From an uncultured Gammaproteobacteria bacterium (lineage in GTDB: Bacteria; Patescibacteriota; Microgenomatia; UBA12405), in NCBI GenBank assembly GCA_964516665.1, contig CAZEXG010000001.1, positions 1 to 24,000 on the forward strand: DNA of 24,000 nucleotides. The letters are read 5' to 3'. Positions 1 through 7,482 of the stretch are shown piece after piece (positions within the stretch are counted from its first letter, which is position 1; each line of letters opens with the position of its first letter). A model generated the notes under the pieces. That model saw nothing but the letters and a program-made list of their open reading frames with translations, ran no database searches and was not told the DNA's origin. A program made the translations under genes and the position numbers.

Positions 1-47
1 CCAGTTTTGTAAACTGGGCGTCGCGAGTCCGAATCTCGCCTCAGGCT
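1..47 (+). tRNA. tRNA-Thr(UGU), 3' portion only (5' half lies outside the window)
   Basis: Anticodon stem CCAGT/ACTGG (1-5/13-17) with loop TTTGTAA (U33, anticodon TGT, A37). Variable loop GCGTC. T arm GCGAG-TCCGAAT-CTCGC (23-39). Acceptor 3' strand CTCAGGC (40-46), discriminator T47. The T loop has C where U55 is expected. The reverse strand gives a poor tRNA (anticodon ACA, 5-bp D stem). Confidence 0.6.
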
Positions 48-409
48 CATTTAATCTTTTTTAGTATTTCTAAACCCAAATAAGCGCACCTCTTTCTGCT
101 CGAGGTCAACTCCACTCCCATTTTCTTTTCAATTTCATGACCGCTCATCTTCTGTACCTCGCTCAATTTTTTACCTTTAACCATTCCCAATAAAATATCT
201 GCCGCCGCCATTGAAATGGCACAACCGCCACCTTCAAACTTTGCTTCTTCGATAATTCCTTTTTTAATTTTTACGCCTATCTTCAATCTATCACCGCACA
301 AAGAATTCTTATCTTCTATCTCTAATCCACCATCAACTTTACCCATATTCTCCGGATTTTTATAATGTTCTAAAATTATTTCTCGATACAAATCGTCTTC
401 CATTTTCAT
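47..409 (-). CDS. sufU: SufU/IscU-type Fe-S cluster scaffold protein
   Basis: 120-aa ORF with three Cys in the contexts typical of U-type scaffolds (NSLCGD, EGGGCAIS, RKRCAYLG). ATGA start/stop overlap with sufS (406-409). Last gene of the suf operon. Confidence 0.85.
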   Translation of the reverse strand: MKMEDDLYREIILEHYKNPENMGKVDGGLEIEDKNSLCGDRLKIGVKIKKGIIEEAKFEGGGCAISMAAADILLGMVKGKKLSEVQKMSGHEIEKKMGVELTSSRKRCAYLGLEILKKIK

Positions 410-1638
410 CCCTCTTTAAATATATCTAATGCATAATTTATTGCTTCTATTAATTTATCAACATCTTCCTTTTCATTATAAAGTCCAAGACTGATTCGAC
501 TTGTTCCTTCTTCTAAATCAAATTTATGATGTAATGGCATGGTACAGTGATGACCGGATCTGACACAAACATTAAACTTTCTTCCCAAAATATCACCCAA
601 ATCATGGCTTCCCGGCACATATTTCCCCACTAACGATACGGAAATCACCCCTTTTCGTTCATCTTCTGGTCCAAAAATCCTTACTTCCGGAATTTTTTTT
701 AACTTTTCTAAGGCATATTTCGTCAATTCTTCTTCCTTTCCTTCGATTGCTTCCCATCCAATACTATTAATAAAATCTACTACCGCCCCCAAAGCAATCG
801 CTTCTGCCACTGCTGGTGTTCCCGCTTCATAAGCTTCCGGACCTGAAGTATAAGTACTGCCTTCCTTTTTTACCTCTTTGATCATCCCGCCTCCAAACAC
901 CGACGGTCTCATCTCCAATTGTCTTTCATTTTTTACCCACAACACTCCCACTCCTGTTGGTCCATACATTTTGTGTCCTGAAAAAACATAAAAATCCGCA
1001 CCCAAATTCATCACATCGACTGGCATGTGTGCCACCGCTTGCGCCCCATCAACTAATACTACAATTTTTGGATTTATTCTCTTTGCTTCTTTAATTATTT
1101 CTTTAATTGGGTTAACTGTTCCTAATACATTACTTACCTGTGTTAAGGCTAAAATTTTACTTTTTGAGGTAATTATTTTTTCTAAATTTTCCCATTCCAA
1201 CTTATAATCCTCACCCACCTCAAGATACTTTAAAACCGCCTTTTTTCTTTTGGCCAATTCCTGCCACGGCACCATATTCGAATGGTGCTCCATTTCCGTC
1301 ACCACTATCTCTTCACCCTCAAAAATATTTTCCTCACCCCACGATCTCGCCACTAAATTAATTCCGGCCGTGGCACCACTAGTAAAAATTATTTCCGATT
1401 CTTGCGCCGCTCCGATAAATTTTGCCACTTTTTTCCTCGCCTCCTCATATTCTTCGGTCGCCTTTTCTGAAATCGGATACAAAGCACGATTAATATTGCC
1501 ACTAAATTCAGTGTAATATTCCATCATTTTATCTAAAACTATTTCTGCTTTTAAAGTTGTTGCTCCACTATCCAAATACACTAAATCGGGGTTTTTCTTA
1601 AAAATCGGAAAATATTTTTTATAATTTTTTACTGTCAT
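406..1638 (-). CDS. sufS: Cysteine desulfurase SufS (class V aminotransferase fold)
   Basis: 410 aa. PLP-lysine context FSGHKMYGPTGVG, catalytic Cys loop RSGHHCTMPL, and suf operon context. Confidence 0.9.
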   Translation of the reverse strand: MTVKNYKKYFPIFKKNPDLVYLDSGATTLKAEIVLDKMMEYYTEFSGNINRALYPISEKATEEYEEARKKVAKFIGAAQESEIIFTSGATAGINLVARSWGEENIFEGEEIVVTEMEHHSNMVPWQELAKRKKAVLKYLEVGEDYKLEWENLEKIITSKSKILALTQVSNVLGTVNPIKEIIKEAKRINPKIVVLVDGAQAVAHMPVDVMNLGADFYVFSGHKMYGPTGVGVLWVKNERQLEMRPSVFGGGMIKEVKKEGSTYTSGPEAYEAGTPAVAEAIALGAVVDFINSIGWEAIEGKEEELTKYALEKLKKIPEVRIFGPEDERKGVISVSLVGKYVPGSHDLGDILGRKFNVCVRSGHHCTMPLHHKFDLEEGTSRISLGLYNEKEDVDKLIEAINYALDIFKEG

Positions 1639-2063
1639 TTTTCTAAAAATGCTTTGATAATTAATTTTATGGCTTCCTCTCTTTTTAATCCTCGGGACAT
1701 CAAATAAAACAATTGCTCCTCATCAATTCTGCCAATTGCCACCGCGTGCGAAGCTTTTACTTCATTTGATTCAATTTCTAGTTCCGGCATTGCCGTCGCC
1801 ATTGAATTTTCTCCTATCAGCAATACCGCCTGTCGCAAAAATGCCTCCACTTCAGATAGACCTTTATCAATTTTTATCATCCCTTTCAAACTCAATTTGC
1901 CTCCCGGCATTACCACTGCCTTAATTAAAGTGTTTCCTTGTGTCTGAGATTCTTTGAATTCCATTACTGTTTCCACCTCAACTTCCTGATCTTTTTTTAT
2001 TACCAAAAATTTTTTGATCTCTTTACTCTCTCCTCTTTTGTCTAAGACATCAAAATATTTCAT
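1635..2063 (-). CDS. sufD: Miniature SufD-like Fe-S assembly protein (SufBD C-terminal domain only)
   Basis: 142 aa. The C-terminal [26 protein letters not shown] parallels the SufB C-terminus in this window ([26 protein letters not shown]). It sits between sufB and sufS with 4-nt overlaps on both sides. Confidence 0.7.
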
Positions 2064-3487
2064 CCGATACTCCCTTCCATTTGTAAACCAATTAAACGAT
2101 TAAGTTCAATACTATATTCCATTGGCAATTCTTTAACGATTGGTTCAATAAAACCATTTACTATCATTGTTTCCGCTTCGTGTTCCTCAAAACCTCTCGA
2201 CATCAAATAAAATAATTGCTCCTCGCCAATCTTACTTACCGTTGCCTCGTGTTCTAAACTCGTCTCTGTTTCAAATATTTTATTTGTTGGGTATGTGTCC
2301 GATCTCGATTCATTATCCAAAATCAAAGCATCACAAAGTACCTTAGAACGGGCATTTTTTGCCCCTTTGTTCATTTGAATTAAGCCCCGGTAACTGCTTC
2401 TTCCCCCCCTTAAACTGATCGATTTAGAAATGATTCTACTGGTCGTGTTTTTAGCCAAATGGATACATTTTCCTCCAGCATCCTGATCTTGTCCTTTTCC
2501 TGCCACCGCCACTGACAAAATTTCTCCATGTGCCCCTTCTCCCGCTAAAATCACACTCGGATATTTCATTGTTGTTTTGCTTCCCAAATTTCCGTCTACC
2601 CATTCCATTACTCCCTTTTCCTCGACCCAGGCTCTTTTTGTGACCAAATTATAAACATTTGTTGACCAATTTTGGATTGTGGTATAACGACATCTTGCTC
2701 CTTTCCCTACCCAAATTTCCACCACCGCTGTGTGTAATGAGTCAGTTTTGTAAATTGGTGCAGTGCAACCTTCCACATAATGGACGAATGCCCCTTCATC
2801 TACCAAAATCAGTGTTCTTTCAAATTGTCCCATATTTTGGGTATTAATTCTAAAATAAGCCTGTAAGGGTAAATCTACCTTTACCCCTTTTGGCACATAG
2901 ATAAAGGATCCTCCCGACCATACCGCACTATTCAAAGCTGCAAATTTATTGTCTCCCATTGGCACAATTTTGCCAAAATGCGACCAAACCAACTCCGGAT
3001 ATTTGGCCAACGCTTCATCCATTCCGCAAAAAATAATCCCCTTATCTCTTAATTTTTTTAACAAAGATCCATAAATTACCTCTGATTCATACTGGGCTTT
3101 TACCCCTCCTAAATATTCTTTTTCTGCCTGAGGAATACCCAACTTATCATAAGTCTCTTTTATTTCTTTCGGCACTTCTTCCCACTTTTTTTTCTCGCCT
3201 TTACTTGCCTTTACATAGTAAAAAATATTATCAAAATCTATTTTTGACAAATCGGCTCCCCAGGTTGGCATTACTTTATCTTGAAAAATCTTATATGCTG
3301 CCAATCTAAAATTCGTCATTCTTTCCTCTTCCCCTTTCATCCTCGAAATAGTTCTCACAATTTCCTCATTCAAGCCTCTTTTGGCCTTATACACGTAATT
3401 TTCAGGACTGGAAAAACCATATCTATAAGGTTCTTTCTCCCATTTTTGTTTTTTGTTTTCTACTTTTATCGGGGCAAAACGACTCAT
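2060..3487 (-). CDS. sufB: Fe-S cluster assembly protein SufB
   Basis: 475 aa of typical SufB sequence ([48 protein letters not shown]). Overlaps sufC and sufD by 4 nt. Confidence 0.9.
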
Positions 3488-4215
3488 TTTTTCTCTTCAA
3501 AACCTTTATCTTCAATTTTCCTTACCAGTTCCATTCCCCCTTTTTCTTTTACTTTTCCTTTTTCCATTATGATTACCTGATCAGCCTTTAGATAATTTAA
3601 AATCCGGCTGTAATGAGTAATCACCAGCACTCCCACATTATTTTCTTTCACCATTTTCTTCACTCTCAACGCAATTGTTTTTAAAGCATCTACATCTAAA
3701 CCCGAATCAATTTCGTCTAAAATGATATATTTTGGCCTGGAAAGTACCATTTGCAACACTTCCATCTTTTTTCTTTCTCCACCTGAAAAACCATCATTCA
3801 GCCCTCTTTCCAACAAATCTTTTTTTAACTGTAATTTATCCGCTTCTTCATCCAACCATTCCCGAAACTCCATTAAGTCCATTCTTTTTTCTCCGGCAAA
3901 TTTTTTATAAATCTGCCACAAAAAACTTTTTACTCCTAAGCCGGGAATCGCCACCGGCGCCTGATTAGCTAAAAATAGACCGCTCATTGCCCTCTCATTT
4001 GGACTTAATTCATTAATTTCTTCCTTATCCAAGGTGATTTTTCCCTCATCCAAAATATATTTTGGATGTCCAGCCAAAGTGTAAGCCAAACTTGATTTAC
4101 CGCTTCCATTAGGACCCATCAAGGCCACCACTTCTCCACCTTTTATCTCCAAATCAACATCCGTTAAAATCGCTTTACCTTCAACCGAAACCTTTATTTT
4201 TTTGCTTTGCAACAT
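3484..4215 (-). CDS. sufC: Fe-S cluster assembly ATPase SufC (ABC-type)
   Basis: 243 aa. Walker [13 protein letters not shown] signature FSGGERKK, Walker [14 protein letters not shown]-loop ITHY. Confidence 0.92.
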
Positions 4216-4723: not shown

Positions 4724-5020
4724 ATGAACATCCAAATCACTGGTGATAACTTTGAACTGTCCGAAAATACTAAAAAGCTCGTTGACGAAAAGATAGGCCA
4801 AAAATTAGAAAAACTCCTCTCTACTTTTGCCCCGGAAATGAAAACAGCTGATCTTCGCATCGAAAAAGACAAACTCGACAACTTTCACCTTCATTTTGCC
4901 ATGAATCTTCCCGGCAAGGAACAAATTTTCTCCGAAACCACCCATAAATTTCTCGAAGCCGCTCTAATCGATCTCGAAGAACAAGTTGAAAGACAAATCA
5001 ATAAATACCGTCTCCATTGA
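4724..5020 (+). CDS. hpf: Ribosome hibernation promoting factor / RaiA family (short form)
   Basis: 98 aa. The N-terminus MNIQITGDNFELSENTKKLVDEKI and the overall size match the sigma-54 modulation protein/HPF/YfiA family. Confidence 0.8.
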   Translation: MNIQITGDNFELSENTKKLVDEKIGQKLEKLLSTFAPEMKTADLRIEKDKLDNFHLHFAMNLPGKEQIFSETTHKFLEAALIDLEEQVERQINKYRLH

Positions 5021-5052
5021 TAATTTTCGCTTAATCCACTACAATACAGCCT

Positions 5053-5232
5053 ATGGCAAAAGCAAAAAAATCACCTCGTATTTTAATCGCCCTCTGTTGC
5101 TCAGTTTGTGGCGCTCAAAATTACCTGACCGAAAAAAATAAAACTAATACTCCGGATAAACTTAAGTTCAATAAATACTGCCGTTGGTGCAAAAAGAATA
5201 CCGAACACAAAGAAAGTACCAAGCTCAAATAA
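5053..5232 (+). CDS. rpmG: 50S ribosomal protein L33
   Basis: Not in the ORF track (59 aa). Hand translation: MAKAKKSPRILIALCCSVCGAQNYLTEKNKTNTPDKLKFNKYCRWCKKNTEHKESTKLK. It has the CxxC...CxxC zinc-ribbon form of L33 and the typical KNK.N.P.KL.. and HKE motifs. Confidence 0.85.
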   Translation: MAKAKKSPRILIALCCSVCGAQNYLTEKNKTNTPDKLKFNKYCRWCKKNTEHKESTKLK

Positions 5233-5993
5233 CTTGGGCTTTGGAAAACATCTACATTTCCCCGCTTGAACTCTGCAATCTCAAGTGCCAGTATTGCTAT
5301 ACCCATAAAACAAAAAATATCCTATCTAACAGGCAAATTTTGTCATTCATCCGCCGATATCAAAAGCACGTTAAATTAAAATCTATTATTTTTTGCGGCG
5401 GTGAAGTTTTCACCCTCAAAAATTTTCCTCGTCTAGTTAACAAACTCATTTCCCAGGGCATTTTTATTTCTATCATCACTAACGGCACCATTGATGTTCT
5501 TAAAAAAATTAAAGATCCACGTAACTGTCAACTCATTGTCTCCTTCGACGGCCCGGAAAAAATTCACGACCAAAACCGTGGTCAAGGTAATTTCGCTAAA
5601 TCGAAAAAATTTGTTGACCACGCTCTAAAACTAGCTTTTCCTGTCGAAATTTTTTATTTAGTCACCAAGGATTCCTACCCTCACATAGATTCCCTGCCTA
5701 CCCTTTTTCCCCAAAACATTCATTTTACCTATCTCACCGACCGTCTTGGCTCTCTAAATTTTGATCAAATTAAAAACATTCGGGAAAATTATTCTGTTTT
5801 CCCTCCCAAAAATTTCCACTGCTCCCAACTTTCTCTTGAATCCGACGGTCAATTTTACCCCTGCTGCGAGTCTCAAAAGTCCTTCGCCTCCCTTCACGAT
5901 CCTGTCTCTAAAATAGTATCTCGCTATCTCGCCCTCTATTCTGCCAATCCCACTTGTCCCGACCCCGATTATTTTTGTGATTTAAAAAAATGA
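5184..5993 (+). CDS. Radical SAM enzyme with C-terminal SPASM/twitch-like Cys cluster
   Basis: CNLKCQYCY gives the CX3CX2C motif near the N-terminus. Also a GGE-like FCGGEVF, SFDGPEKIHDQNRG, and C-terminal CSQLSLESDGQFYPCCES plus CPDPDYFC. The track start is TTG 5184, which overlaps rpmG by 49 nt. An in-frame TTG at 5241, just after the rpmG stop, is an equally plausible start. Confidence 0.8.
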   Translation: MVQKEYRTQRKYQAQITWALENIYISPLELCNLKCQYCYTHKTKNILSNRQILSFIRRYQKHVKLKSIIFCGGEVFTLKNFPRLVNKLISQGIFISIITNGTIDVLKKIKDPRNCQLIVSFDGPEKIHDQNRGQGNFAKSKKFVDHALKLAFPVEIFYLVTKDSYPHIDSLPTLFPQNIHFTYLTDRLGSLNFDQIKNIRENYSVFPPKNFHCSQLSLESDGQFYPCCESQKSFASLHDPVSKIVSRYLALYSANPTCPDPDYFCDLKK

Positions 5994-6757
5994 CACAATC
6001 TGATCTATTAAAATCTATTCGCCAATATTTCTGGAATCTAAATTTCACTGAAGTTGAAACTCCCTATCTTAATTCTTCCCTCCCTTTAGAACCCAATCTT
6101 TACACTTTTAAAACTACTTGGACTCATCGTCATCAGGATTTTTATCTTCCTTGCTCCCCCGAGTTTTCTCTCAAAAAATTTTTAGCCGAAAATAAACAAA
6201 ATTGTTTTGCCATCTCCCATTGTTTTCGCGATCTTGAAAATGAAGGTCCGGATCATACACCTGAATTTCTAATGCTCGAATGGTACGAAATTGGTAAAAA
6301 CTATCGGGACCTGATACTCTCGACCCAAAACTTTATTAATAATTTTTTAGATATCGAATTTACTGAATATACCCTCCCTTTAAATCTTCCCGACAACGAA
6401 GCGGATTTCAACCAATTTTTTCTCAATGAAATTGAACCTAATTTACCCAAAAATAAGGCTGTTTTCGTCACCGGTTATCCGACTTTTCTCTCCCCCCTAG
6501 CTAAAGCTGGTGAACGTTTTGAACTTTATCTAAACGGTACTGAAATTGCCAACGCCTGCACTGAAAACACCGACTCGGACTCTATTGTTAAAGCCTTTGA
6601 AAGCGAAAAACAATTTCGTCTTCAAAATAATCTCCCTCTTCACCCCTTCAACGTAACTTTTGCTGCAAATTCTGCTAAACTAGAATTAAGTTCAGGTATT
6701 GGACTTGGCATTGACCGTTTATTGAAAATAATTAATCAAAATGACCGTATCAGATAG
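5990..6757 (+). CDS. EpmA/GenX/PoxA-like truncated class II (IIb) aminoacyl-tRNA synthetase paralog (no anticodon-binding domain)
   Basis: 255 aa. Motif 1 region FTEVETPYL, SPEFSLKKFL, motif 2 CFRDLENEGPDHTPEFLMLEWY, ERFELYLNGTEIANA, motif 3 SGIGLGIDRLL. The colinear pattern matches E. coli EpmA as I recall it (EVETP, SPEYHMKRLL, FRNEE..HNPEFTMLEWY, ERFEVYYKGIELANG, GVALGVDRL). ATGA overlap with the radical SAM gene. Confidence 0.75.
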   Translation: MTQSDLLKSIRQYFWNLNFTEVETPYLNSSLPLEPNLYTFKTTWTHRHQDFYLPCSPEFSLKKFLAENKQNCFAISHCFRDLENEGPDHTPEFLMLEWYEIGKNYRDLILSTQNFINNFLDIEFTEYTLPLNLPDNEADFNQFFLNEIEPNLPKNKAVFVTGYPTFLSPLAKAGERFELYLNGTEIANACTENTDSDSIVKAFESEKQFRLQNNLPLHPFNVTFAANSAKLELSSGIGLGIDRLLKIINQNDRIR

Positions 6758-7310
6758 AGGCGAGTTACCTTCAAGGCATCCCAAAAAAAAATCAACCTAT
6801 CACATCATAAAACAATTCCAAATCGCCAACAAAGAAAAAGAATATGCTGTCAACCATGACGAACTTACCGGCCTATATAACCAAAGATTTTGGCTAACCG
6901 AAGTTGATCGTCTCACTAATAGTCGAAATCGTTTTACCGTCGCCGTCGTTGATCTTGACGGTTTCAAACAAGTCAACGACTCAGAAGGACATTCTGCTGG
7001 TAATCAAACTTTGGTCAACACAGCCGAATTTCTTAAATCCGCTTTTCGTGGTAGCGACATCATTGCCAGAACCGGCGGCGATGAGTTTGCAATTCTATTG
7101 GAACTATCCCCTGAAATCGACCAAGAAGAATTACTAAATACTATTAGCCATCGCTTGAGTGCTGGTCAACAAGCACTAAATTTCTCTTATGGAATTTCCC
7201 AATGTAGTAGTGGTGAGGGACTTAAACAGTGTATTGAAGAATCAGATCAACTTATGTACGACAATAAAAAACAAAGAAAAAAAGTAGAAACTAGTATAGA
7301 ATATACTTGA
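6741..7310 (+). CDS. Stand-alone GGDEF-domain diguanylate cyclase (no sensor domain)
   Basis: 189 aa. HDELTGLYNQRFW, VAVVDLDGFKQVND, active site RTGGDEFAILL, and an RxxD I-site (RGSD) exactly 5 residues upstream of GGDEF. Overlaps the preceding gene by 17 nt. Confidence 0.85.
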   Translation: MTVSDRGELPSRHPKKKSTYHIIKQFQIANKEKEYAVNHDELTGLYNQRFWLTEVDRLTNSRNRFTVAVVDLDGFKQVNDSEGHSAGNQTLVNTAEFLKSAFRGSDIIARTGGDEFAILLELSPEIDQEELLNTISHRLSAGQQALNFSYGISQCSSGEGLKQCIEESDQLMYDNKKQRKKVETSIEYT

Positions 7311-7311
7311 T

Positions 7312-7482
7312 ATGGCTAAAGACATTAAAAATACTCTCAAAACTCCTCAAAGCACCAAACCTTTTTCGGAAAGAGTTCCTTTTAAAAATCCTTTTTTTCA
7401 ACAAAAATCACTCATCCCCAAGGGTGGAAAATCTTTCAACACTTCTTTTCGAAATCAAAATCGCGGTAGCGGCGGCAAATAA
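7312..7482 (+). CDS. Hypothetical small basic protein (56 aa), not in the ORF track
   Basis: Hand translation: MAKDIKNTLKTPQSTKPFSERVPFKNPFFQQKSLIPKGGKSFNTSFRNQNRGSGGK. The ATG starts 1 nt after the GGDEF stop (TGAtATG). The ORF exactly fills the gap to the convergent dCMP deaminase gene. No homolog recognised. Confidence 0.35.
   Translation: MAKDIKNTLKTPQSTKPFSERVPFKNPFFQQKSLIPKGGKSFNTSFRNQNRGSGGK

Follow-up and report, generated by a model that had tools for sequence, protein, structure and literature searches.

An EpmA-like ligase and a SPASM/twitch-like radical SAM enzyme paired in Microgenomates: a candidate EF-P-type lysylation pathway

In Escherichia coli and Salmonella, EpmA, EpmB and EpmC act in the β-lysylation of Lys34 of elongation factor P (EF-P), and the radical S-adenosylmethionine (rSAM) partner of the ligase EpmA (also called GenX, PoxA or YjeA; TIGR00462/PRK09350), EpmB, is a pyridoxal phosphate-dependent enzyme of the KamA type. 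We analyzed a 24,000-nucleotide (nt) stretch of DNA, called the window here (positions 1 to 24,000 of contig CAZEXG010000001.1, assembly GCA_964516665.1; Microgenomatia in the GTDB lineage), in which an EpmA-like ligase gene adjoins the gene of an rSAM enzyme of the SPASM/twitch class. What does an EpmA-like ligase do with such a partner? The reading we favor, which is about evenly poised between right and wrong, is an EF-P-type lysylation pathway in which an α-lysine ligase would be joined by a tailoring rSAM enzyme and, in some lineages, by a small accessory or second-substrate protein. The genes concerned belong to five tightly packed genes on the + strand (5053-7482), which are listed here with the promoter-like site before them.

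5017..5045, + strand: promoter-like site, TTGATA-17-TACAAT, 5' of rpmG (consensus scan only, no functional evidence)
5053..5232, + strand: rpmG, ribosomal protein L33, Zn-ribbon form (PF00471, 65.6 bits; TIGR01023)
5184..5993 (269 amino acids (aa), TTG 5184) or 5241-5993 (250 aa, TTG 5241), + strand: rSAM enzyme (PF04055, 63 bits)
5990..6757, + strand: EpmA/GenX-like ligase, 255 aa (PF00152, 104 bits; TIGR00462, 192 bits)
6741..7310, + strand: GGDEF diguanylate cyclase, 189 aa (PF00990, 105 bits)
7312..7482, + strand: 56-aa basic orphan open reading frame (ORF), recognized by its conservation 3' of the ligase gene

The last four of these had been proposed in an initial annotation made from the sequence alone; all four ORFs were recovered at the same coordinates and strand, and the PF04055, PF00152/TIGR00462 and PF00990 calls hold.

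Conservation of the rSAM-ligase pair

The rSAM gene was sought in one genome per GTDB species and was found in 51 species, which were Shapirobacteria, Woesebacteria or other Patescibacteria-labelled metagenome-assembled genomes, apart from generically titled records. In this set, the ligase gene adjoins the rSAM gene in every locus with room for it, mostly directly downstream, with an insert of 1-3 kb between the two genes in three loci. At L048 and L051 the two genes are divergently transcribed and no rpmG is nearby. When more distant rSAM relatives (~40% identical) were collected by a metagenome scan, the ligase gene lay directly downstream in 49 of 58 evaluable loci. The pair is conserved in about 130 Microgenomates loci and in two orientations; its adjacency recurs in about 100 evaluable related loci, which is far beyond chance. 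Since it outlasts rearrangement and deep divergence, the linkage is not mere inherited synteny. The core module is widespread in Microgenomates, a group of the Candidate Phyla Radiation (CPR), and the co-occurrence of the gene pair that the initial annotation had raised proved to be strongly conserved. The rSAM family itself is conserved and narrow, with 649 clusters at 90% identity and ~20 representatives at 50% identity with E < 1e-30.

The two partner enzymes appear to have undergone coordinated reductive evolution, of which the pair would be an example. Within the branch that carries the small protein, the ligase is full-length in clade B (312-354 aa) and of a mini form (232-290 aa) in clade A, which includes the window; the rSAM enzyme is a Cys-rich SPASM protein in clade B and twitch-like in clade A. 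The ligases in L030 and L040 are reduced further still. In these orthologs (L030 2882-3604 and L040 5921-6748; 240-275 aa), the helical segment from the lysine pocket to motif 3 is missing, suggesting ongoing reduction, or decay, in some lineages.

A few rSAM orthologs were seen without a ligase gene within ~6 kb (L063, L094, L095, L101, L102, L111 and L125), and the one at L095 is flanked by genes for an undecaprenyl-phosphatase-like protein and a membrane protein like those of the major facilitator superfamily. In such lineages the ligase gene may lie elsewhere, or the rSAM enzyme may act alone. In addition, many Microgenomates-type loci carry the TPA title "uncultured Gammaproteobacteria bacterium" and one is titled "Candidatus Methanoperedens". 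These titles (L012, L014, L019, L028, L030, L034, L035, L040-L042, L044, L049, L050, L054, L056 and L057) look generic or mis-binned and are not to be taken as taxonomy.

The ligase resembles EpmA with a predicted α-lysine gate

EpmA was the best match of the ligase by profile, by sequence and by fold, which agrees with the first placement of this protein with EpmA/GenX; LysRS and AspRS came behind. PF00152 spans residues 2-255 of its 255 residues, so that it consists of a class II catalytic domain without an anticodon-binding domain, the same LysRS-derived core as in EpmA. The best NCBIfam match was the EpmA model TIGR00462 at 192.1 bits (cutoff 286.9), and a second EpmA equivalog model gave 171.1 bits (cutoff 264). 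Full-length relatives also score below the EpmA cutoff (269.7 bits for L051 and 210.8 bits for L074), and EpmA is the top profile match for the ligase and its relatives throughout. The closest PDB sequences are Salmonella and E. coli GenX. Residues 5-123 of the ligase align to GenX 22-143 and residues 140-247 to GenX 195-310; this two-block alignment indicates that an insertion of ~50-55 aa between motifs 2 and 3 is missing. The ligase also lacks the C-terminal tail that follows motif 3, and it has 255 aa compared to 325 aa in EpmA. In a Foldseek search with the AlphaFold2 (AF2) model of the ligase (pLDDT 87), ranks 1-9 were all GenX (3A5Y, 3G1Z, 3A5Z), with TMq values of 0.79-0.81, and LysRS structures ranked after them.

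With class II LysRS (LysS/LysU), the ligase shares the core fold, motifs 1-3, a gate Gly and the lysine-binding Glu/Tyr. However, its alignment to LysS begins only at about LysS residue 170, the N-terminal OB-fold anticodon-binding domain is absent, and it scores 106 bits on LysRS profiles with cutoffs of 428-468. It cannot be the housekeeping LysRS.

Conservation of single residues was read from 73 non-identical relatives. The conserved ligase residues are E58, R80, H89, E97, Y99, R176, E178, E185, N188, E192 and R243. The adenylate-forming and lysine-binding sites of EpmA (Arg100, His108, Glu116, Tyr118, Arg235, Glu244, Asn247, Glu251, Arg303 and Ser76-Pro-Glu78) are all identical in the ligase of the window and at least 85-100% conserved in the relatives. 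Judging from these residues, lysine activation and ATP use would be EpmA-like. One pocket position differs: where EpmA has a Phe stacked on the side chain of lysine, the window ligase has Cys and relatives have Asn or Tyr.

The gate residue also differs. E. coli EpmA A298 is reported to be a binary gate, at which (R)-β-lysine is selected by Ala and (S)-α-lysine by the A298G variant (bioRxiv 10.64898/2026.07.07.736966). Ligase G238 aligns with this residue, and Gly is found there in 97-100% of the relatives and in 33/33 ligases of the distant group (set 2); only L048 has Ala. Since the gate is Gly instead of Ala298, the donor is predicted to be a lysine with an α-backbone. A different amino-acid substrate had been suggested for this ligase at the outset. 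That suggestion survives in part, since the donor is probably α-lysine in place of (R)-β-lysine, but it is probably not a different amino acid altogether. The ligase is EpmA-like, but it fails two features of EpmA, the equivalog score and the Ala298 gate, and its partner is of a different class. It appears to be a class II core for lysine activation that has been minimized naturally (~250 aa), a point of interest for the EpmA engineering now under way.

The rSAM partner is a SPASM/twitch-like enzyme, not an aminomutase

In Pfam, the rSAM enzyme matches just the generic PF04055 (63 bits). Its NCBIfam matches are to the N-terminal core of SPASM/twitch maturases, far under their cutoffs, and no named rSAM family reaches its cutoff with the window protein or its relatives; no named housekeeping family accounts for it either. 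The core begins at residue ~10-30 and the CX3CX2C triad (C31/C35/C38) has no preceding domain. The triad and an FCGGE motif are invariant in the family, as are five C-terminal Cys (C213, C227, C228, C258 and C265 in the 269-aa numbering), arranged as CX8GX4CC...CX6C.

A SPASM domain has the seven-Cys motif CX9-15GX4C ... CX2CX5CX3C ... C, with two auxiliary clusters, and a twitch domain is a truncated SPASM domain with one set of ~4 Cys after a β-hairpin, for one auxiliary cluster. With five C-terminal Cys only (CX8GX4CC + CX6C), the window enzyme fails the seven-Cys motif, and the Pfam SPASM model gave no match in it. Relatives with longer C-termini (clade B, L048 and L051) carry CX2CX3-5CX2CC...C...C and align across the SPASM region of SbtM and PapB. 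Because these relatives keep the full Cys set (CX2CX5CX2CC in the fuller ones), the window enzyme can be read as a reduced, twitch-like SPASM derivative. NF033640 (N_Twi_rSAM) gave 44 bits (cutoff 170), and the Cys count and the SkfB and MoaA folds fit a twitch domain. The AF2 model (pLDDT 86) has an rSAM fold, with SkfB, anSME, MoaA, SuiB and EpeE as its top matches. Thus, the C-terminal Cys cluster that was called SPASM/twitch-like from the sequence is upheld by its motif, by the full-Cys relatives and by the fold matches, but not by a Pfam SPASM match.

The enzyme shares a CX3CX2C core and a β-hairpin CX8GX4C with further Cys with families that act on peptides or proteins (SkfB, anSME, SuiB, EpeE) and on small molecules (MoaA, BtrN-type). 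It differs from them in having lost the second Cys set, in its length of only 250-269 aa and in lacking a Pfam SPASM match and a recognition element (RRE) of the kind that binds precursors of ribosomally synthesized and post-translationally modified peptides (RiPPs). No RRE domain was found in it. Its conserved partner is a paralog of an aminoacyl-tRNA synthetase (aaRS), which the searched literature does not describe for these families.

The candidate role of an EpmB/KamA aminomutase was rejected. No KamA or lysine aminomutase was among the top 50 Foldseek matches of the model, and the KamA/EpmB family was absent among the best 25 of 76 NCBIfam matches. With E. coli EpmB in tblastn, similarity was confined to the Cys-triad segment (EpmB residues 119-172). 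The triad of EpmB does lie deep inside the protein, at about residue 120 of 342, as had been noted, and the central proposal of the initial annotation, a noncanonical rSAM partner for an EpmA-like ligase, stands: the partner is of the SPASM/twitch class and not of the KamA class.

Two further observations concern rSAM enzymes of this kind. Second-tier proteins of ~290 aa (P0260-P0275), with scores of 80-135 bits on the rSAM family profile, share its layout (CX3CX2C at the N-terminus, WCG(T/S)GE, CCE, and CX2C at the C-terminus) and may represent a wider uncharacterized family. At L051, where the pair is arranged divergently, a 65-aa ORF like a 4Fe-4S ferredoxin (3684-3881, - strand; CIGCNTC...C) lies directly downstream of the ligase gene and its product is a possible electron donor for the rSAM enzyme.

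Link to EF-P in sister lineages

Of the 42 evaluable loci of the distant group, 7 have efp downstream of the ligase gene, at a distance of 45-2300 nt; at least three EF-P lineages are represented. The distance is 45-123 nt in L074, L077, L112/L113 and L132, 1.3 kb in L079 and 2.3 kb in L066. The EF-P loops examined were those encoded by these ligase-linked efp genes in sister Microgenomates lineages. The proteins are 39-81% identical to each other and all have a PGKG loop with the Lys34 equivalent; the EF-P of L074 is annotated as Candidatus Gottesmanbacteria. E. coli epmB likewise adjoins efp. We consider EF-P to be the ancestral target of the pair, and the efp adjacency in sister lineages is the strongest evidence for this. 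A different protein target, which had been proposed for the window, is not required since the same pair is found directly upstream of a PGKG-type efp in these lineages.

PoxA His52 makes contact with EF-P's acceptor loop (PMC3950694). Beside the corresponding position, the ligases have a loop signature, P-x-E-P, with 91-100% conservation in the efp-linked group and in that of the window alike. Since P-x-E-P is kept in both groups, acceptor recognition may be unchanged.

A small basic protein is encoded beside the ligase

In about 40 loci, ORFs of 47-67 aa that are homologous to the 56-aa ORF are found 3' of the ligase gene, after the GGDEF gene where one is inserted. A profile search gave 109 clusters of this family, all "hypothetical", of 47-67 aa and from the same lineage, and three distant members start 8-24 nt past the ligase gene. 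Substitutions fall on the three codon positions as 1394/1020/2505, which is a third-position excess. The 56-aa ORF is thus a real gene and a core conserved member of the operon in the Shapirobacteria/Woesebacteria branch. No homolog is present in L048, L051 or the efp-linked group, so that the gene is a later addition to an older two-enzyme module.

With an isoelectric point of about 11.3 (~11-12 in the family), the 56-aa protein is very basic. Cys is absent from it, Pro, Lys, Asn, Thr, Phe and Gln are abundant, and disorder is predicted. The family conserves KNTL..QSTKP in its N-terminal part and FR(N/T)Q(N/S)RG(S/G)GGK in its C-terminal part, and only M1, P17 and ~G52 are (near-)invariant. 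One clade has a C-terminus that reads ...FRTQ(N/S)(R/K)G(G/S)GGK; in another clade it reads ...NRGRR or ...GVR. Searches of Pfam, NCBIfam and PDB gave no match, even at E = 10, and a known ribosomal protein or a member of another known family was therefore rejected as its identity. A degenerate EF-P fragment was rejected as well (hhalign probability 0.07%; just a loose K-G-x-x-F resemblance). Between clades, a C at the ligase pocket position goes with a C-terminal K of the small protein and a Y with R. This covariation was discarded as evidence because L030, L038 and L043 pair Asn with a K terminus and because it is confounded with phylogeny.

The GGDEF protein (RGSDIIARTGGDEF) is a stand-alone cyclase whose GGDEF motif is intact and which has an RxxD I-site. 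It has no sensor domain, whereas the one at L005 (6862-7869) is a PAS-GGDEF protein. GGDEF genes, with divergent sequences, occur in only about 10 of about 55 related loci and repeatedly form an insert that separates the small ORF from the ligase gene. Because only a minority of the loci have one, the cyclase is best seen as a passenger or variable insert. Of the two downstream genes first counted as members of the operon, the 56-aa gene therefore keeps its place in this branch and the GGDEF gene does not. As an observation apart, cyclases with intact GGDEF and I-site motifs do occur in these roughly 1-Mb CPR genomes.

Proposed pathway and alternatives

In the proposed EF-P-type pathway, the EpmA-like ligase would adenylate lysine and transfer it, without tRNA, to an amino group of a protein acceptor, most probably the ε-amine of the Lys at the tip of the EF-P loop (PGKG). 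The donor would probably be ordinary L-α-lysine, which would make a lysine 2,3-aminomutase unnecessary. In place of EpmB and EpmC there would be the SPASM-derived, twitch-type rSAM enzyme, and no EpmC is present. The rSAM enzyme may carry out radical (H-abstraction) tailoring of the side chain of the protein-bound lysyl-lysine, or of the acceptor loop. In the Shapirobacteria/Woesebacteria branch, which includes the window, the pair would have moved beside rpmG, the ligase would have lost its insertion and tail, and the rSAM enzyme would have lost the Cys set of its second auxiliary cluster. This branch would also have gained, directly 3' of the ligase gene, the gene for the 47-67-aa basic disordered protein, which has no counterpart in the EpmA pathway and may be a lineage-specific accessory factor or a second substrate.

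Several findings weigh against this pathway. As first noted, no efp is present in the window, and about 60 loci of the window's own branch have none over ±5-6 kb. There, the small protein gene always holds the slot that efp takes in some sister lineages, which could mean that the target has changed. The ligase is ~70 aa shorter than EpmA and falls under both EpmA equivalog cutoffs. PoxA Glu103, His108 and Arg235 are essential for aminoacylation of EF-P (PMC3950694); the His108 and Arg235 equivalents are conserved, but the Glu103 equivalent is Asn or Asp in the family. In the window ligase this Asn is flanked by Glu83 and Glu85, and the partner position of Glu103 in EF-P, Lys31, is Asn or Ser in CPR EF-Ps. 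Finally, no chemistry is assignable to the rSAM enzyme, and the folds that it matches include MoaA and BlsE, SPASM/twitch enzymes with small-molecule substrates.

A change of target is the subject of the main alternative, which we consider unlikely although worth keeping in view. Here, the 56-aa protein, as the substrate, would be lysylated by the ligase on an amine (at its N-terminus, its C-terminal Lys or a Lys side chain) and its conserved C-terminal FRTQNRG would be tailored by the rSAM enzyme, giving a RiPP-like or ribosome-associated product. The small gene strictly follows the ligase gene by 8-40 nt, or else follows an inserted GGDEF gene, while the genes beyond it vary, the small protein shares a narrow phyletic range with the rSAM enzyme, and the nearest folds of that enzyme are the peptide maturases SkfB, SuiB and EpeE. 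PoxA recognizes EF-P through its short acceptor loop alone, which makes a peptide acceptor conceivable (PMC3950694), and K-G-x-x-F loosely resembles the EF-P loop KGxAF. However, the few invariant residues of the small protein include no Lys, its C-terminal residue is K in one clade, R in the other and N in one member, it has no Cys, hhalign shows no EF-P homology, and the enzyme pair predates it and exists without it. What would be looked for in a RiPP precursor and its maturase is present only in part, as there is a small peptide but neither an RRE in the rSAM enzyme nor a gene for a protease, transporter or other exporter in the operon. A broader form of this idea, which makes the 56-aa protein the center of the system, aminoacylated on an amine by a tRNA-independent aaRS paralog and tailored by the rSAM enzyme into a new type of modified small protein that might act at the ribosome as a minimal EF-P analog or partner, or be a scaffold for building the modification of EF-P, is also unlikely in our judgment.

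Another possible explanation, improbable as it seems to us, follows the logic of mycofactocin, pyrroloquinoline quinone (PQQ) and pearlin biosynthesis. The rSAM enzyme would modify the C-terminal Lys/Arg of the small protein as a precursor, and the released residue would be ligated to EF-P. The mycofactocin (MftA/MftC) and PQQ (PqqA/PqqE) operons likewise combine a small peptide that has a conserved C-terminus with a SPASM-type enzyme, and the tail of the 56-aa protein is conserved, with a basic end after a Gly-rich spacer. An amino-acid ligase whose partner is a SPASM-type enzyme and not an aminomutase would fit this scheme, as would the C or Y in the ligase pocket of the K-terminal and R-terminal clades. 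The covariation is not strict, though, with Asn and K together in L030, L038 and L043 and only about two transitions in all. The operon has no peptidase gene and no RRE/chaperone protein of the MftB/PqqD type, and efp-linked relatives have no such peptide gene nearby. In contrast to the mycofactocin and PQQ peptides, the small protein is very basic, disordered and missing from the older part of the family, and its gene is linked most tightly to the ligase gene and not to the rSAM gene. The α-amine-binding Glu and the Gly gate suit plain lysine. Truncated aaRS paralogs that modify RNA have precedent, and this precedent, with the location of the operon among translation genes (HPF, rpmG and tRNA genes), speaks for an RNA target: in the manner of GluQ-RS (YadB), a truncated paralog of GluRS, the ligase would aminoacylate a modified nucleoside of tRNA or rRNA and the rSAM enzyme would act on the same nucleoside. 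We regard this as very improbable, since the best homology and fold are to a protein ligase, EpmA, the efp adjacency in sister lineages indicates a protein target and no RNA-binding domain was found. A module for defense or signaling, with a viperin-like rSAM enzyme and the GGDEF protein acting against phage or through a second messenger and the ligase unrelated, is close to excluded. The GGDEF gene does lie inside the operon, and the rSAM enzyme does match PADLOC pVip (50.9 bits) and the NCBIfam viperin model (45.8 bits), but the viperin matches cover only the generic rSAM core (residues 9-118; profile 7-116 of 257) and stay far below the cutoff of 180. To our knowledge, viperins carry no auxiliary Cys cluster. 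The GGDEF gene is missing from most loci, PADLOC has no match for the ligase, the GGDEF protein or the small protein, and the module is chromosomal, syntenic and vertically conserved. A prokaryotic viperin or defense gene was therefore rejected as the identity of the rSAM enzyme.

If the EF-P-type pathway is correct, a SPASM rSAM enzyme and an EpmA-like ligase with an α-gate beside efp would be a further route of EF-P activation, in CPR bacteria. Known routes are β-lysylation, rhamnosylation, 5-aminopentanolylation, unmodified PGKGP-type loops and EfpL (2026 review, PMC12856214); none of these uses a SPASM/twitch rSAM enzyme. Literature searches for EpmA/EF-P with SPASM, radical SAM, CPR or Patescibacteria returned no description of the pairing or of the small protein. 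Such a pathway would bear on why EF-P needs β-lysine over α-lysine and on whether a radical enzyme can remodel a protein-bound lysyl group. It would also place an orphan small protein in tight coupling with a translation-related module in ~1-Mb genomes. Genes retained in genomes of this size are rarely dispensable. The initial interpretation of the locus is, as a whole, partly supported.

The transcription unit and the rest of the window

The promoter-like site 5' of rpmG is the likely start of the transcription unit, judged by its match to the consensus. No convincing + strand terminator was found inside the cluster (consensus matches only), and the rSAM, ligase, GGDEF and 56-aa genes are probably cotranscribed with rpmG. 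The ATGA overlap between the rSAM and ligase genes, described from the start, is seen in the junction sequence aaaaaaATGAcac. The ligase and GGDEF genes overlap by 17 nt, and the GGDEF stop and the start of the 56-aa ORF are separated by a 1-nt gap. The operon therefore continues by an overlap into the GGDEF gene, as described earlier, but the small ORF abuts its neighbor without overlap.

The rSAM gene has two candidate start codons: TTG 5184, which gives an overlap of 49 nt with rpmG, and TTG 5241, which lies 9 nt past the rpmG stop and agrees with the shortest homologs. The optional N-terminal extension (window 5184-5240; M.QK.YRTQR..QAQI) is kept in homologs P0133, P0202 and L047. It is read from the conserved 3' end of rpmG in a different frame, so its conservation may be a by-product of L33 coding, which leaves the true start codon uncertain.

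Directly upstream of the rSAM gene, rpmG is found in about 49 of 51 genome loci; it does not adjoin the pair in L048, L051 and the P0493 locus. L33 was therefore rejected as an obligate partner or target, and its position is treated as synteny.

The window also contains genes for Suf Fe-S assembly, tRNAs, HPF, nucleotide metabolism and others. The Suf-type cluster is complete (47-4215, - strand: NifU-like, SufS, SufD-like, SufB and SufC) and lies directly upstream of, and divergent from, the rSAM operon, with two tRNA genes and HPF between them. This neighborhood, seen again in L001, L003 and L005, puts Fe-S supply beside an Fe-S enzyme but may be mere synteny.

Downstream of a GT2 glycosyltransferase gene is an 872-aa ORF (12636-15254, + strand) with no Pfam match. 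At 10,750-11,700 there is a GC-rich island, with 52-60% GC compared to a background of ~38%. It holds a 301-aa ORF (10722-11627, + strand) with a predicted transmembrane helix and no Pfam match, and it ends in a strong GC hairpin (RNA fold z-score -7.2, from 20 shuffles only). Hammerhead_3 gave a weak, sub-threshold match at 11703-11751 (28 bits; gathering cutoff 48.5). The island may be a foreign GC-rich gene rather than a noncoding RNA.

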